Shown here in pieces: positions 1 through 5,612 of a stretch of 11,544 bases of DNA. Each line of letters starts with the position of its first letter. The stretch's first letter is position 1. Origin of the DNA: a virus (lineage: Monodnaviria > Loebvirae > Hofneiviricota > Faserviricetes > Tubulavirales > Inoviridae); IMG/VR virus record IMGVR_UViG_2541047905_000001. One strand, given 5' to 3'. The position numbers and the translations under genes are program-made. Under the pieces are notes generated by a model. The model saw nothing but the letters and a program-made list of their open reading frames with translations. It did no database searches and was not told the DNA's origin.

Positions 1-327
1 TCATTTTTTCCAGAGGCGGTCGAACTCCGCCTTCGCAAAATAAGCGGAAGCCTGGCGAAGGATATCGTTACTGCGGCGCAGTTCACGATTTTCACGTTCC
101 AGCTCTTTCAGACGCTGACGTTCAGCGGTGGTGAGCCCTCCATCACCGCCCCCGGTATCCCGCTCATGCTGGCGAACCCAGACACGCAGAGTCTCCGGCG
201 TACAGCCAATCTTTGGAGCAATGGAACAAATTGTCGCCCATTGTGAGTCATATTCGCCCTGACTTTCCAGAACCATACGGACTGCCCGTTGACGGACTTC
301 AGGGGAAAAACGAGTATTTTTAGTCAT
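1..327 (-). CDS. IS3-family transposase OrfA (IS629/IS1203-like), 108 aa, HTH DNA-binding subunit
   Basis: Translation [61 protein letters not shown]...[36 protein letters not shown] matches my memory of IS629 OrfA. A leucine-zipper-like C-terminus and an A-rich slippery run near the 3-prime end (AAAAAAT near positions 4-10, minus strand) fit a programmed frameshift into orfB. Confidence 0.9.
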
Positions 328-742: not shown

Positions 743-775
743 GGTGCGCATAATGTACGACTCGTTATGTTGAAA
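743..775 (+). other. dif-like XerC/XerD recombination site with an expanded central region; candidate prophage (IMEX) junction
   Basis: Seen: GGTGCGCATAA-TGTACGACTCG-TTATGTTGAAA. From memory, E. coli dif is GGTGCGCATAA-TGTATA-TTATGTTAAAT. The XerC arm is identical (11/11), the first four central bases match, the XerD arm matches 9/11, and the central region is 11 bp instead of 6. Confidence 0.55.
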
Positions 776-809
776 AGGCCGCTGCGAAAATCGAATCCCG
801 CAGCGGCCT
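776..809. terminator. Strong GC-rich hairpin (11-bp perfect stem, 12-nt loop) between convergent genes; probable bidirectional terminator
   Basis: Seen: AGGCCGCTGCG (776-786) pairs perfectly with CGCAGCGGCCT (799-809). It lies downstream of the minus-strand gene ending at 843 and downstream of the plus-strand ORF ending at 666. The U-tracts are weak on both strands (CTTTA on plus, TTTCAACA on minus). Confidence 0.5.
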
Positions 810-842
810 CTTTAGCATAACGTCATTGTGCGAACCAATTAT

Positions 843-1109
843 TTAGTCCTGCTGTCGACCAGGGGCATCATAACCTTGTCTTTTTCGCCATGCTTTTTCA
901 CCTCTCTCCCATATAACCGTGTCATTAGTTAGCTTTCTAAATTTCGCTAATACTTTTTTATCAATGGATAAATTTCCATTAGCATTCAAATATACGAAAG
1001 TATCGCCAAATAACTCTTTTATTTTATATACAACAGTTTCTTGATATAGCCAGTTTGTGTTTTCCAGCTCTGATTTCATCCATTGTGCAACATCATCTAC
1101 AGTAGCCAT
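843..1109 (-). CDS. Hypothetical 88-aa protein; downstream partner of the nuclease-like gene in an AT-rich two-gene cassette
   Basis: ORF with an AGGA-containing RBS (AAAAGGACATAT then ATG) 10 bp after the stop of the upstream gene, which indicates co-transcription. Soluble, charged, basic C-terminus (KAWRKRQGYDAPGRQQD). Family not recognised. Confidence 0.6.
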   Translation of the reverse strand: MATVDDVAQWMKSELENTNWLYQETVVYKIKELFGDTFVYLNANGNLSIDKKVLAKFRKLTNDTVIWERGEKAWRKRQGYDAPGRQQD

Positions 1110-1119
1110 ATATGTCCTT

Positions 1120-1914
1120 TTATTTTGGTGAGATTATTACTTTTACCGAAATTGAATTTGTACAACGCTCAAGGTCATTCTCCACACCAATTGGATTGGC
1201 AATTCTACCTTCAGGGTCATATACAAAACACACTAAAGTTTCGCAATCAGGATGCGTTTGATAATGAGCTATATCAACAATTAATTGCTCACCAACTTCT
1301 TTTTGCTTGAGATTTTTTCTCGTTTTCTTTAACTCGATAATGATTTTTTCATTCTTTAACAAGAAGTCAACTCGTGTTGAAGATCCTGCATAGCTTGGCG
1401 TATATTCTTCTGGTCTGACATCCTCGAAATGAATCTTCAAAAGAGCATGAAATAAATCCTGAACGTCATATTCGTCATTTATTTCAATGGTTTGTCTATT
1501 ATCGTGTCGTTGCTGTAGCTGTCTTGCAACCTTATGAAATTGATGGCAAATTAGTTCAACAAGAGCTACGGGATCATTTTTTGTCTCTATGAAATTCCCG
1601 TCAATTCCATATTCTTCAATCTCAGCAATCATAGACGTAAGAAGAGAATGTGCTTCATCTAAACCACTACAAAATGCGTTATCGAAAACATAATCTGGTG
1701 TATCACCAACAAATGCCATTAAAGAGTATCGAATTGAGCCAAATTCTTTTTTGTGATCTGACTCTTCACCAAATATTTTTGATATGGCGGTCTTAGTGTT
1801 TCTTTGCCATAAGTTAAAACTTGGGTTATTTCCTGTACTCCTTCGTTCATTTTGTATTGCTGGGATTTGCTCCCGTTGTCTTTTTAATATCTCGATAGCT
1901 TTTTCTGGCTTCAT
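1120..1914 (-). CDS. Hypothetical 264-aa protein with an alpha-helical N-terminal region and a C-terminal PD-(D/E)xK-type nuclease-like motif; candidate defence or abortive-infection effector
   Basis: Strong RBS (GAGGAAAGATA then ATG at 1914). The translation contains the motif order typical of the restriction-endonuclease-like fold: ...IHFEDVRPEE...STRVDFLLKNEKIIIELKKT... (candidate D183, E194, K196) followed by Q210...Y218. The coding sequence is conspicuously AT-rich compared with the flanking IS and phage DNA. The fold assignment is inferred from the motif, not from a search. Confidence 0.6.
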   Translation of the reverse strand: MKPEKAIEILKRQREQIPAIQNERRSTGNNPSFNLWQRNTKTAISKIFGEESDHKKEFGSIRYSLMAFVGDTPDYVFDNAFCSGLDEAHSLLTSMIAEIEEYGIDGNFIETKNDPVALVELICHQFHKVARQLQQRHDNRQTIEINDEYDVQDLFHALLKIHFEDVRPEEYTPSYAGSSTRVDFLLKNEKIIIELKKTRKNLKQKEVGEQLIVDIAHYQTHPDCETLVCFVYDPEGRIANPIGVENDLERCTNSISVKVIISPK

Positions 1915-1980: not shown

Positions 1981-2403
1981 TTACCAATAATAAGAGTTTC
2001 TTCTGTGCCACCAATAAAGCAGACCGTATCCGACGATAAGAATACCGAAAAACATTAACGACATTCCCCAGCCAGTTCCGTACCACGAAACCATATCATC
2101 GAAAACCAACCCACCCATTTCACGTACTCCGGCAGCTTCCTTAAGAATTGGTTTGAATACCGGAATCAGAAGGGCGATCGCCAGTGGAGCACCCCAGCGA
2201 ACAAGGCCTGTTTCCATTTTGATCCCGAAAAAGATCCCCGCCCCAACAACAAGCAGCCAGACTATCAGGCCAGGCGCAGTTTCCAGTGCTGTTTGCCATT
2301 CAACATCGAAAGTTTTCATTAGCCAGGCAACAACTGCCAGACAGAAAGCAAATACGCCGACGACAACCAGTTCAACGCCGCTTGTTTCGTTATTTCTACT
2401 CAT
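1981..2403 (-). CDS. Hypothetical multi-pass inner-membrane protein, 140 aa
   Basis: Translation shows several hydrophobic segments (VELVVVGVFAFCLAVVAWL, GLIVWLLVVGAGIFFGI, APLAIALLIPVF, MSLMFFGILIVGYGLLYWW). Same strand as, and upstream of, the nuclease-like gene with a 66-bp gap. RBS AAAAGGA precedes the ATG. Confidence 0.6.
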   Translation of the reverse strand: MSRNNETSGVELVVVGVFAFCLAVVAWLMKTFDVEWQTALETAPGLIVWLLVVGAGIFFGIKMETGLVRWGAPLAIALLIPVFKPILKEAAGVREMGGLVFDDMVSWYGTGWGMSLMFFGILIVGYGLLYWWHRRNSYYW

Positions 2404-2502: not shown

Positions 2503-2949
2503 TTACTCTTCTCCAGACACCGCTTTTTTCATAAACATTTTAGTACTGTAAGTGTATGAACTTAATGCAGAAACCTGCCTTGCGAGTGCCAGAATATCTT
2601 GTTTTTCCAGTGTCCTGATGTTCCACACGATGAAATTATGTGCGTTAGTGGTTTCTTCATCAGTATATCCATCCGCAGAAGTGATTAGCTTCCGCTCGGT
2701 AGCTTCTTCTTTAACATCAAGAGCATAGCCATAAGCTAAGGTGTTTAAGTCTGCACCCGTAATTTTAGCTATCTGAATGATGTCACTGAATTTAGGTTCA
2801 GTTTTGCCGGACGCTATCCTGACCAGCGTACTCACGCTAATGCCAGTCTTCTCGGCCAGTTCTTCATAAGTCGAGTGTTCCAGAATTACCTTTTTGATAC
2901 GTTCTGCTCTCTGTTTGTCCGCCATAACTTCATGCTCATTGTTGCCCAT
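2503..2949 (-). CDS. XRE-family helix-turn-helix transcriptional regulator, 148 aa; probable prophage repressor transcribed divergently from gII
   Basis: HTH signature in the N-terminal third (STYEELAEKTGISVSTLVRIASGKTEPKFSDIIQIAKITGADLNTLAYG). Its position and divergent orientation relative to the replication gene resemble repressors of filamentous prophages such as RstR of CTXphi. GGAG lies 9 nt upstream of the ATG at 2949; an alternative start at Met9 is possible. Confidence 0.75.
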   Translation of the reverse strand: MGNNEHEVMADKQRAERIKKVILEHSTYEELAEKTGISVSTLVRIASGKTEPKFSDIIQIAKITGADLNTLAYGYALDVKEEATERKLITSADGYTDEETTNAHNFIVWNIRTLEKQDILALARQVSALSSYTYSTKMFMKKAVSGEE

Positions 2950-3120: not shown

Positions 3121-3711
3121 ATGATCGACTGGTTTACCGGAATCCTGCCTTGCACACACCGACCGTTACCGGCTGGTAGTGTCGTCAGCGTCGATGCTGA
3201 CGGTGCAGTGGAGTGGGAAACAGTAAAACGGTTGACCGTTCGCGGTTCGCATGAGTCCACAATGAAAGTAAGGTCTGTTGGATCTGATGGTGAAGGTAGG
3301 GCAACACATCTCTACATTGACGGTAATCCATCAAAGTTTTTGCAAGGTCACTCTGTTATCGGTTCCGACGATTTGCAAGGGTTGGTGTTAACAGCTTACG
3401 CCAGAATATTGGCATTACTGCATATTCCTCATGATCTACCATCCTATCGGCAGGTCATGGAAGGGCAATTTAAGATCTCGCGCATCGATATCAATTACAT
3501 GTATTCATTGTCAACATTAGAAAATGTCCGCGCATGGTTATATGCCGCAGAATTTAAAGCTAAAACTCGCCACGGTCGCGCCTGTGGTAAAGGTGGCACT
3601 GTTTACTTAGGGAAAAACTCCCGTCGTTGGAGCCTGAAATTTTATTCAAAATATGATGAGCATACATCTGGCAAAAAAGGGCACCAGATGGCAGTAATGC
3701 CAGTCAGTTAA
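3121..3711 (+). pseudogene. Filamentous-phage replication initiation protein (Ff gII-like), N-terminal fragment, interrupted by IS4 after codon 191
   Basis: Translation starts MID... and contains KFLQGHSVIGSDDL and ISRIDINY, matching the M13 pII segments KVLQGHNVFGTTDL and ISRIDATF as I recall them. Native coding sequence ends at 3694; the last five codons (VMPVS, stop) are read from IS4 sequence. Confidence 0.9.
3682..3694. repeat. Left copy of the 13-bp target-site duplication (CACCAGATGGCAG) made by IS4 insertion
   Basis: Identical 13-mer abuts both ends of the IS at 3682-3694 and 5121-5133. Confidence 0.85.
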
Positions 3712-5120
3712 GCAACTGACTGGCTCTTTTTCGGGGCTGTGGGGTATTTCCAGGGCCTCTCCTTTACCACTCTCGGGAAGGCCCTTTCCCTTCTTGTCGG
3801 TAATTTCACAAGTTGTCCCATACTTGCAAGATCGCGCATCAGCTCCGGTATACGTCCCGGTGAAGCGCCCTGCAATGTCATCAGCATTCTCATCACCATT
3901 CCGCATGATTCTGAGAAACTCAGTTGATTCGGCCAGTAACCTTTCAGATGTTCCGCCATTTTAATCATCTGATATCTCACCAGATTATAAGCCAGTAAGA
4001 CACCCCACAGCTCTTGCTCCACAAGCTCCGGCTTTTTACTTCTCAGCGTCAGCCTGCTCCGTTGCATCGTCTGTTTTATCTCCCTGTATCCCAGTTCGAT
4101 TTCCCAGCGATGACTGTACAGATCCCCCATTTCTCCTCCGGGGAAGCGCATGGCGTCCGTCATCGACGTCAGCAGATGGCAGACTTTTCCTTTGCGCGTC
4201 ACGGTCAGCAGGCGGGCAGTCACTTCATTTCCCAGTCCCGGCCACTTTTTTCGTGCCTGCGGGCTGGTTTTCAGCTTCACCAGATGATCGCCTTTACCCA
4301 GTTTTCTGATCTCTTCATATTGCGCTCCCTTTCTGAGAGGTATCATCCAGTGGCGGTGTTCTCCCGCCAGGCTCCAGGCATTTAACAGTCCCAGTGAGTA
4401 ATAACCTTTATCCATTAACGTCAGAGTGTTATCGCCGGTTTGTTCTATAAGTTGCTCAGCAAGCTCATTTTCGCTGTTCTTCATCGTGCCGAAGGCTGCA
4501 GCCGTCAGCAGATGGCTGGTCAGTTCCATCTGGCAGACCATTTTGACCTGCGGGTAGAGCGCCGGGTTCCCGGCATGTGTCTGGCGGGGGAAGGCTGCAT
4601 CGTTCTCTGGTGTATCCGGTGTGCGCCAGAACACACCATCGATGGCCAGCAGGGTCAGGCCGCACCAGTGCGGATGCGGCGTGGCGTTATGCCAGAGCTG
4701 CGCTGTTTTCGTGAACACGCGGCGGACAGCCTCACTTCCCAGGCGCTGGCGGGCCTGAATAACGGCACTGGGGGCAACGAAGGGGCGATTGCCCGGCAGC
4801 ATGATGTCCAGGCGATTCACAATCTGGTGAAGAGGTTCTTTACGCTCAAGCGCCATGCCAACAATACACCAGACCATCATTTCGAGGGGAAGACGGCGCT
4901 TGCGTAGCGTTACAGTACCTGATTCGGCAAGGCAACGAGAGATGAGTTCGGGGTCGAGGTAATCCCCCAGAGAAGTCAGTGGGTTACGCAGAGAATCGTA
5001 ACGGGATACCAGATCAAGAGCCTGTCCAATGTGCATAAAAAAATCCGGAAACAAGTGAGCGTTTCCGGATTCTTACACAGCCACTGGATCGGTCAACTGA
5101 TCCTTAACTGATCGGCATTA
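3695..5120 (-). mobile_element. Complete IS4 insertion sequence (1426 bp) inserted in gII
   Basis: 18-bp terminal inverted repeats TAATGCCAGTCAGTTAAG (3695-3712) and the reverse complement of 5103-5120 (TAATGCCGATCAGTTAAG), 16/18 identical. Single transposase ORF. The 1426-bp length matches my memory of IS4. Flanked by the 13-bp direct repeat. Confidence 0.95.
3708..5036 (-). CDS. insG: IS4 transposase, 442 aa, DDE family
   Basis: Translation from [70 protein letters not shown]... to ...[13 protein letters not shown] matches my memory of E. coli IS4 InsG. The ORF track begins six codons earlier (MFPDFF); I take Met7 as the true start. Confidence 0.95.
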
Positions 5121-5133
5121 CACCAGATGGCAG
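5121..5133. repeat. Right copy of the 13-bp IS4 target-site duplication
   Basis: CACCAGATGGCAG, identical to 3682-3694. Confidence 0.85.
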
Positions 5134-5297
5134 ACGAATTCGTTAAAGCTGGTTTACTGGACTGGTCAAAAGATAAATTACGCATTGAATTAACATTAAG
5201 AACAACTGAATTAATTGATTTGAATCTTACGCTTGGTAATAGCTGGAATATTGAGACGCCCAATAAATTATTCTCTGACTATGTAGGGAGAATAGAA

Positions 5298-5612
5298 ATG
5301 AATCAAAACACTATATTAACTGATGAAAAAATAATTAATCTCCCAAGAAAAATACAGTCTACATATTTATTGTGGAAGCAGGGCGCGAACATGAAAGAGA
5401 TGTTACCGAAACCTACATTCTACCGACACCGTAAAGAATTACTTTCTTTCGGAATAGATATTAACTTTTATTGTGAGTCACCGGATTCTAATAACGTTGT
5501 TCCGTTGGTTCGTACTCTTGAAGCCAAACCAGCCAAAATTCCATCATGGGTTTATGAGAAAGGTTTAATTTTCGATTATAACCGTATTTCACATGCCAGT
5601 AACTGGCATTAA
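5298..5612 (+). CDS. Possible gX-like protein (in-frame internal restart within the gII C-terminal region), 104 aa
   Basis: In-frame ATG at 5298 preceded by a strong Shine-Dalgarno sequence (GGGAGAA at 5286-5292). In Ff phages pX is the C-terminal roughly 111 aa of pII made from an internal start. Inferred by analogy. Confidence 0.4.
   Translation: MNQNTILTDEKIINLPRKIQSTYLLWKQGANMKEMLPKPTFYRHRKELLSFGIDINFYCESPDSNNVVPLVRTLEAKPAKIPSWVYEKGLIFDYNRISHASNWH

Follow-up and report, generated by a model that had tools for sequence, protein, structure and literature searches.

A predicted defence nuclease with a facultative DUF6953 partner in the variable cargo slot of a CUS-1/Ypfφ-type filamentous prophage

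The inovirus record IMGVR_UViG_2541047905_000001 of IMG/VR, 11,544 nucleotides in length (the whole stretch is referred to below as the window), harbors a cassette of two genes, the larger of which codes for a predicted nuclease. Both open reading frames (ORFs), taken from the stretch itself, are co-oriented on the minus strand. The first (1120–1914) encodes a stand-alone protein of 264 residues (WP_001527023.1), identified by matches to the Pfam family PF18742 and the PADLOC model Aga_Helical-REase and by an AlphaFold2 (AF2) model. The second (843–1109) encodes a stand-alone winged-helix protein of 88 residues belonging to the DUF6953 family (WP_001527024.1). A Shine-Dalgarno-like GAGGA lies a few bases 5' of the ATG of the nuclease gene, and the corresponding motif of the DUF6953 gene, AAGGA, is read at a similarly short distance from its ATG within the 10-bp spacer that separates the two genes in an operon-like layout (1110–1119, minus strand). 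The same two ORFs, 10 bp apart and each with a good ribosome-binding site, had been described in a first-pass annotation made from the letters of the sequence alone. Sequence homology indicates that both are genuine genes rather than chance reading frames, since the 264-residue protein matches PF18742 with an E-value of 6.9e-59 and has 3617 homologues in the family search, and since the 88-residue protein matches PF22266 (DUF6953) with an E-value of 1.8e-28. In RefSeq, WP_001527023.1 is labelled 'PD-(D/E)XK nuclease domain-containing protein' or 'hypothetical protein'. Both cassette proteins and the neighbouring 140-residue protein have full-length families in PHROGs, all of them listed as function-unknown. 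NCBIfam contained no family for the nuclease or for the DUF6953 protein, neither the DNA nor the proteins of the cassette had a match in the INPHARED phage collection, and no Rfam RNA family was found in the window.

The GC content measured in sliding windows along the stretch was 0.33–0.37 over positions 750–1950 and 0.42–0.65 to either side. The cassette as such has a GC content of 35.4%, versus 42% in the remainder of the phage and 50–65% in the insertion sequence (IS) elements, in agreement with the earlier description of DNA visibly richer in AT than the flanking IS and phage genes. The extent assigned to the cassette in that description, 843–1914, is correct for the ORFs but not for the AT-rich variable DNA, which runs from about 847 to 1975.

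The C-terminal domain of the 264-residue protein (residues 118–264; positions 1123–1563, minus strand) is predicted to be a nuclease of the PD-(D/E)xK, or restriction-endonuclease (REase), fold. The match to PF18742 (REase_DpnII-MboI) extends from profile position 2 to 150 of 150 and scores 198.1 bits for a cut-off of 27. Residues 97–263 match the PADLOC model Aga_Helical-REase (PDLC02411) with an E-value of 1.3e-34 over profile positions 216–375 of 378. In an alignment of 39 homologues, in which residue conservation was scored, D183, K196, Y218 and E148 were invariant, as were many surrounding residues, and E194 (at least 90%) and Q210 were nearly invariant. Searching the PDB sequences with single cassette proteins gave almost no matches; the family profile matched one solved structure, EcbAgaN (23wq; E = 4e-4), with D183, E194 and K196 aligned with its D-E-V-K motif. 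The AF2 model, built from 39 homologues (pLDDT 85), comprises two parts joined by a disordered linker, and the second part consists of a helix-strand-strand-strand-helix-strand-helix-strand succession that contains the alpha-beta-beta-beta-alpha-beta core of the restriction-endonuclease fold. The D...ExK and Q...Y hallmark proposed from the sequence (D183, E194, K196, Q210 and Y218) was thus correctly read, as judged from the conservation of these residues in the family and from the profile alignment with EcbAgaN; together with E148, they are the candidate catalytic residues. Of the checks that the first-pass annotation had suggested, profile searches returned a nuclease fold for this protein, through PF18742 and through the profile match to EcbAgaN. 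The stretch RQLQQRH, which that annotation mentioned and did not rely on, is present, but it is not a HEPN motif since it is located inside a helix of the nuclease domain (residues 115–135, at the N-terminal edge of the PF18742 match), its histidine is H or Y in homologues, and no HEPN family was hit. In the Pfam scan at E ≤ 1, the protein matched PF18742 and, by chance, CENP-S; the true DpnII family, PF04556, gave no match.

The N-terminal domain (residues 1 to about 105; positions 1600–1914, minus strand) is a four-helix bundle in the AF2 model (helices at residues 3–22, 31–48, 53–59 and 74–102) and a candidate regulatory or sensor domain. A helical N-terminal domain had been anticipated, but its length had been set at about 150 residues, which exceeds that of the bundle, the nuclease domain starting at about residue 118. 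F33, W36, R38, T40 and F48 are invariant. The bundle otherwise evolves faster than the nuclease domain, the mean identities in the family comparison being 44.6% and 67.6%, respectively. Bundle residues 1–107 match positions 1–103 of the 264-position PADLOC model PDC-S35 (E = 3.6e-11), and the C-terminal 160 positions of this model do not match the protein, so that full-length identity with PDC-S35 was rejected. PDC-S35, an untested single-gene candidate that is likewise about 260 residues long, appears to combine this N-terminal module with another C-terminal domain. At about 30 homologue loci, the N-terminus is of another kind, for instance a DUF2321 zinc ribbon, or the protein is a version about 400 residues long, and an IncX4-type bundle was found elsewhere. 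These comparisons indicate that the N-terminal region is swappable among relatives, as in a sensor-effector modularity. A search with the N-terminal domain alone, for alternative C-terminal effectors, returned two fragments only.

The two genes had been proposed to form a module. The neighbourhood of the nuclease was sampled at 80 species-representative loci, in which DUF6953 was sought within 6 kb and 150 immediate neighbours were recorded. DUF6953 was present near the nuclease homologues in none of these 80 genome loci, in none of 25 viral contigs, and not in the IncX4 plasmid pCROD2. In the reverse direction, the nuclease was found beside DUF6953 in two of 80 metagenomic DUF6953 loci, both of which belong to this same phage. 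The pair recurs in a phage of this type from Salmonella enterica, with 96% identity for the nuclease and 89% for the DUF6953 protein, an extra DUF2158 gene, and the 10-bp spacer kept. The pair is also present in a chromosomal islet of Pectobacterium brasiliense (34% GC in flanks of 50% GC; identities of 58% for the nuclease and 77% for the DUF6953 protein; spacer of 16 bp), where the mosaic nuclease combines an IncX4-like N-terminal bundle with a phage-like nuclease domain. In Morganella, an intact DUF6953 gene is preceded by all that is left of a nuclease gene, its last 52 codons (48% identical). The closest nuclease outside phages, that of P. polaris (85% identical), is solitary, without DUF6953, at the very site of the P. 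brasiliense pair; this shared Pectobacterium site adjoins SnoaL_2, DUF3811, LysR and MCP genes (loci L130/L131 versus L093), and the nuclease alleles differ. Because the pair recurs in Enterobacterales yet the P. polaris nuclease stands alone, these loci indicate that the pairing is real but facultative, and limited to an enterobacterial sub-lineage. The proposal of a two-gene module is thus only partly supported, the two genes not being a generally conserved pair. An obligate two-gene or toxin-antitoxin (TA) system was rejected, as the neighbourhoods in genomes, viral contigs, plasmids and metagenomes gave it no general support, and the fact that the nuclease needs no DUF6953 protein argues against an obligate antitoxin.

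The nuclease family is widespread and patchy. Homologues were found in about 400 of 100,044 species representatives, archaea included, and 50–57% identity was kept across Proteobacteria, Bacteroidota, Cyanobacteria, Firmicutes, Planctomycetota, Saccharibacteria (hence members of the CPR) and archaea, which implies horizontal transfer. No neighbour family recurred in more than three of the 80 loci. Among the 150 immediate neighbours were seven PIN proteins, five AAA_21/AAA_15 ATPases of the GajA/OLD type, two GmrSD, two PemK and two integrases, in addition to a type I methyltransferase, TrwB/TrwC and ordinary metabolic genes; this mixture hints at defence and mobile-element islands. Many homologues reside on chromosomes and have no mobile-element genes beside them. 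Others are located on 25 further IMG/VR viral contigs and on 207 PLSDB plasmids, 161 of which are conjugative. An IncX4-type backbone homologue (about 44–47% identical, 263 residues, catalytic residues intact), exemplified by that of Citrobacter rodentium pCROD2 (locus L096, 4878–5669), sits between the resolvase/partition genes and hns-hha-topB, in the maintenance region. The IncX4 homologue is sometimes mis-annotated as 'malate dehydrogenase'.

The 88-residue DUF6953 protein is a small winged-helix protein. Among longer members of its family, three fusions were clear, TIR_2-DUF6953, PIN_8-DUF6953 and DUF2158-DUF6953, DUF6953 forming the C-terminal domain of the TIR_2 protein (240 residues, P0239) and of the PIN-like PIN_8 protein (396 residues, P0344). 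Many other N-terminal extensions were acidic and of low complexity. The sole recurrent neighbour was DUF2158, a protein of about 50–70 residues with the motif GDxVxLKSGGPxMTV, whose gene is located immediately upstream, in operonic arrangement, in 7 of the 80 metagenomic loci; it lies downstream in the Salmonella phage (locus L133, 6321–6524) and is fused to DUF6953 in P0254. Other neighbours in the 80 metagenomic loci were CAP12-type TIR proteins, a Cap15 receptor, PIN proteins, integrases and housekeeping genes, and single look-ups placed DUF6953 beside GDPD, beside DAO, in a prophage, and next to a CBASS operon. DUF6953 also occurs in an E. coli island with Abi_2, Mrr, a resolvase and PemK, and on an IncF plasmid with RES toxins. 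In the latter two locations, DUF6953 genes that are 73–74% identical adjoin genes for a 236-residue protein (E. coli island, L092, 6347–7057) and a 257-residue protein (IncF plasmid, L097, 3953–4726), which are homologous to each other (E = 4e-21). Both proteins have an RxxxxH motif and weak Pfam HEPN hits (E-values of 0.02–0.3), to be taken as a lead only, and these HEPN-like proteins may be an alternative effector partner of DUF6953.

The vehicle of the cassette is, as judged from its gene content, a filamentous phage of the CUS-1/Ypfφ type. The chromosome of E. coli VR50 matches positions 700–2100 at 100% identity, and the full segment is present in 24 of 5426 complete E. coli genomes. VR50 and N10 contain a CTXφ-like gene set (helix-turn-helix (HTH) repressor, pII/X replication protein, single-stranded DNA (ssDNA)-binding protein, small coat proteins, large adsorption protein, DUF2523, Zot and secretin) that directly adjoins hipBA, the location of E. 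coli dif. RefSeq annotation and Pfam families show an RstR-like repressor, a pII-type replication protein, a G5P-like ssDNA-binding protein, a Zot-like assembly ATPase and a secretin, and the prophage is integrated at dif; these are the traits of XerCD-dependent inoviruses of the CUS-1/Ypfφ/CTXφ type. The N10 prophage is a tandem array with a unit of 9.5 kb; since both cassette genes recur with each unit, they are part of the phage genome. The identical cassette was also found, with the same phage in tandem, on the Klebsiella pneumoniae IncFIB/IncHI1B plasmid NZ_CP132684 (locus L098, 1–18792), which indicates that the phage moves between genera and that a site on a plasmid can serve for its integration.

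Alignment to the prophages of NU14 and ST131 MB1159 delineated an AT-rich variable cargo slot (about 847–1975) that differs between phages otherwise 98% identical, the identity breaking off at 838/846 and returning at 1976/1981. In NU14 (O18:K1 lineage), the slot contains a single gene for a protein of 369 residues with no family match (locus L094, 2784–3893). In ST131 MB1159, it contains a gene for a 159-residue protein and a gene for a 91-residue zinc-ribbon protein, 'ECs_2282 family' (locus L095, 3223–3977). Apart from a partial match of the zinc ribbon to PADLOC PDC-S64 (E = 4e-7), no informative family match was obtained for these cargo proteins, which thus do not establish the slot as a hot-spot of defence genes. 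The backbone to the right of the slot (140-residue membrane protein gene and repressor gene) was detected in 96 E. coli genomes at a coverage of at least 80%, of which 24 have the cassette. Repetition with the tandem unit, a slot that contains other genes in sister phages and phage-borne spread to a Klebsiella plasmid and to Salmonella all support the first-pass suggestion of horizontally acquired cargo of a filamentous prophage. The two ORFs adjacent to attL are not the same in Ypfφ (YPO2271/2272) as in CUS-1 (orf1/orf1a), and no function is predicted for them (PMC4266046); in both phages, which belong to the same family, they occupy the position of the cassette, between the att site and the RstR-like repressor gene, with a different gene content.

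The domain family of the nuclease has served in characterized systems. bAgaN (EcbAgaN) is a dimeric, Mn-dependent and non-specific DNase that acts as the abortive-infection effector of the long-B Argonaute system BPAN and kills the cell on detection of an invader (PMC10620215). It shares with the 264-residue protein a homologous C-terminal REase-fold domain and the same plan, a helical N-terminus followed by the nuclease, but its N-terminal region of about 215 residues is not homologous to the bundle of about 105 residues, since the hidden Markov model match covers profile positions 216–375 only. Membership in BPAN was rejected: there is no Argonaute-sized ORF in the window, none is annotated within 12 kb in VR50 or N10, and the PDB match to bAgaN is limited to the catalytic core. 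As the 264-residue protein stands alone, its activation must differ from that of bAgaN. For the Detocs protein DtcC, PF18742 figures among the alternative effector domains (bioRxiv 10.1101/2023.01.24.525353, Fig. S8), the same Pfam domain being used there as a swappable defence output. The cassette was not assigned to Detocs: neither the 264-residue protein, whose N-terminus is a helical bundle, nor its neighbours have receiver or kinase domains, and DtcA and DtcB are missing. Classical restriction-modification of the DpnII/MboI type was likewise rejected, with no methyltransferase annotated within 12 kb in VR50 or N10 and no match to PF04556; an N6 methyltransferase was one of the 150 immediate neighbours of the homologues. 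The PD-(D/E)xK toxins of the CdiA-CT type (PDB 4zqu and 4g6u), at 11–12% identity, show no relationship to the nuclease at the level of sequence, and they are delivered from cell to cell and neutralised by CdiI, neither of which applies here. Filamentous prophages provide a precedent in the kinase-kinase-phosphatase (KKP) module of Pf, which is reported to protect the host from lytic phages (PMC11341870); its proteins and mechanism are unrelated to those of the cassette, and KKP also regulates the Pf prophage itself. The general expectation of the first-pass annotation that PD-(D/E)xK effectors recur in defence systems is thus borne out by the domain family itself, which provides the effector of BPAN and an alternative effector of Detocs. 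Its statement that no named system could be assigned also stands: the PADLOC check was run, and no named PADLOC 2.0 system covers this architecture.

We consider, with a probability of about 0.5, that the nuclease carried by this prophage is self-contained and serves in defence, with a facultative protein as its accessory. The nuclease gene is probably a defence gene because its domain is also used by the known anti-phage systems described above. In this scheme, the cassette would be transcribed in the lysogen from the strand that also encodes the phage repressor, the transcript ending at a conserved hairpin, and the N-terminal bundle would hold the nuclease inactive by autoinhibition or oligomerisation. 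A signal of invasion, from a phage or another mobile element, might then release the nuclease, which would degrade DNA in a metal-dependent and largely sequence-independent manner, like its relative bAgaN. DNA degradation would protect the population of lysogens and hence the prophage. The DUF6953 protein would be a facultative accessory, either a regulator that binds nucleic acids or an adaptor, and not an obligatory partner or antitoxin.

Several observations weigh against this proposal. The promoter scan of the cassette yielded no more sites than shuffled sequence, so that the cassette promoter was not located. An identity of about 68% in the nuclease domain across phyla is unusually high and atypical of defence genes, which evolve fast, and the four-helix bundle has no recognisable ligand-binding or DNA-reading motif. 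Many neighbours of the homologues are housekeeping genes, and the neighbour tally comes without a background rate, which makes the link to defence islands a qualitative one. The position of the homologue in the backbone of IncX4 conjugative plasmids could reflect a role in plasmid biology instead. PADLOC 2.0 includes no named system, and the literature no tested system, with this architecture, and a literature search on DUF6953, PDC-S35, PF22266 and WP_001527023 found nothing.

Three other explanations have to be weighed against a self-contained defence nuclease. The operon-like pair with its 10-bp spacer could be an addiction module stabilising the prophage, in which the nuclease would be the toxin and the DUF6953 protein both antitoxin and autoregulator. 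Such a role would suit a small winged-helix protein, as many antitoxins are, and one that is fused to toxic TIR and PIN-like domains and adjoins HEPN-like proteins. In Morganella, the decay of the nuclease to a 52-residue remnant next to an intact DUF6953 gene is the order expected for a TA system, and the Ypfφ episome is unstable and easily lost (PMC4266046). We nevertheless regard this explanation as very unlikely. Catalytically intact nucleases stand alone in the 80 genome loci, in the 25 viral contigs, in IncX4 plasmids and in P. polaris, and therefore need no antitoxin; moreover, most DUF6953 genes have no toxin-like neighbour, their commonest partner is DUF2158, and a toxin-first gene order is atypical of type II systems. 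The fact that most genomes require no partner to neutralise toxicity would suit a solitary restriction-type enzyme cutting incoming DNA at specific sequences or modification states (unmethylated GATC-type sites, for example) with no abortive infection. The name of the Pfam family, taken from DpnII and MboI, and the presence of a type I methyltransferase and GmrSD among the neighbours of homologues point the same way. Against it, PF04556 was not matched at E ≤ 1, VR50 and N10 have no methyltransferase within 12 kb, no DNA-reading domain is recognisable (the four-helix bundle is none), the nearest characterised relative is non-specific, and the family spans many phyla that differ in their methylation backgrounds. 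We regard a solitary restriction-type enzyme as unlikely.

The nuclease could also be a tool of mobile elements rather than a means of host defence, serving in competition or exclusion between elements (rival dif inoviruses or plasmids), or in DNA processing or maintenance of its carrier. The IncX4 backbone homologues (about 44% identical) in the maintenance region, the 207 plasmids of which 161 are conjugative, the recurrence of homologues in prophages and viral contigs, and the location of the gene next to attP in the window all speak for this explanation. However, only 24 of the 96 E. coli carriers of the backbone have the gene and the sister phages have unrelated cargo, which shows that the nuclease is dispensable for the phage life cycle, and numerous chromosomal homologues adjoin no mobile-element genes. 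We give this explanation little credence. A broader proposal, which combines two ideas each resting on few cases, is that the dif-integrating CUS-1/Ypfφ inoviruses have an attP-proximal hot-spot of swapped conflict modules and that DUF6953 is a hitherto unrecognised, effector-associated winged-helix sensor, adaptor or regulator, adjacent or fused to interchangeable effectors (PF18742 REase, HEPN-like, TIR and PIN-like), often with DUF2158. The cassette would then be one instance of a new modular defence family; that both parts hold together is doubtful at present.

The domain families of the cassette are already catalogued, and the PD-(D/E)XK nuclease domain is named in RefSeq. Protection of lysogens by the nuclease, if real, would reveal a very widespread type of single-gene defence, in which the effector domain known from the Argonaute and Detocs systems is reused under another trigger that is self-contained. 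Exchangeable defence cargo beside attP would then be a feature of small filamentous prophages in pathogenic E. coli, Salmonella and Klebsiella. It could account, as a concrete hypothesis, for the so far unexplained fitness benefit of CUS-1 and Ypfφ, whose family is known from extraintestinal pathogenic E. coli (ExPEC) and plague bacilli, and it would give a first indication of what DUF6953 and DUF2158 do. If the slot is a hot-spot, a function would be gained for the ORFs with no predicted function that are thought to underlie the fitness effects of these prophages. Should no phenotype emerge, what remains is an annotated gene with a nuclease domain in a prophage of a familiar type.

The left end of the prophage is marked, beside a hipA remnant, by a hybrid dif site, attL (743–770, plus strand). 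Its sequence, GGTGCGCATAATGTACGACTCGTTATGT, which opens with GGTGCGCATAATGTACGA, matches dif at 20 of 28 positions, including the whole XerC arm. In intact strains, this site is flanked by hipBA. Alignment placed the start of a second tandem phage copy at window position 740. A repeat search detected an inverted repeat (763–822, minus strand; 24-nt arms at 763–786 and 799–822) just downstream of the stop codon of the DUF6953 gene, in conserved phage DNA. The RNA is predicted to fold into a strong hairpin (−33.4 kcal/mol, z −6.4) followed by UUUUC. This hairpin probably terminates the cargo transcript and is possibly also the stem of a single-stranded attP. Its arms contain TTATGTTGAAA and TTATGCTAAAG, which, on our reading, resemble the XerD arm of E. 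coli dif. A second dif-like site, GGTTCGCACAATGACGTTATGCTAAAG, seen by eye only, is located at about 810–836 on the minus strand, inverted with respect to the site at 743–770 on the plus strand, with the hairpin between them. This layout, with inverted dif-like sites around a hairpin at the end of the phage, is reminiscent of the single-stranded attP that CTXφ-type phages form by folding. Beyond the attachment site, an IS3-family element (orfA, 1–327, minus strand) truncates hipA, leaving only the C-terminal part of HipA (289–666) beside the prophage end; the arrangement in VR50 is alike.

On the other side of the slot, the conserved 140-residue backbone membrane protein (1981–2403, minus strand; phrog_4174), encoded by an ORF outside the variable cassette, is 98% conserved in phages with other cargo. 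It is followed by the gene of the RstR-like HTH repressor (2503–2949, minus strand), which matches Pfam HTH_3 (E = 1.6e-9) and, weakly, NCBIfam phage_RstR and has its own terminator hairpin, an inverted repeat at 2446–2474. At 3121–3711, 3708–5054 and 5127–5612, the pII/X replication gene of the phage is split by an IS4-family element with a 448-residue transposase about 97% identical to that of E. coli IS4. The junction of this split gene was found in none of the complete E. coli RefSeq genomes, so that the window does not stem from the VR50 RefSeq assembly despite the identity over 700–2100. Because of the interruption, the prophage copy in the window is probably replication-defective. Finally, the putative g3p-like adsorption protein (6528–8240) has 570 residues here and in the Salmonella phage, versus 520 residues in the E. 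coli RefSeq prophages, a difference in length that suggests an exchange of host-range modules among these phages.

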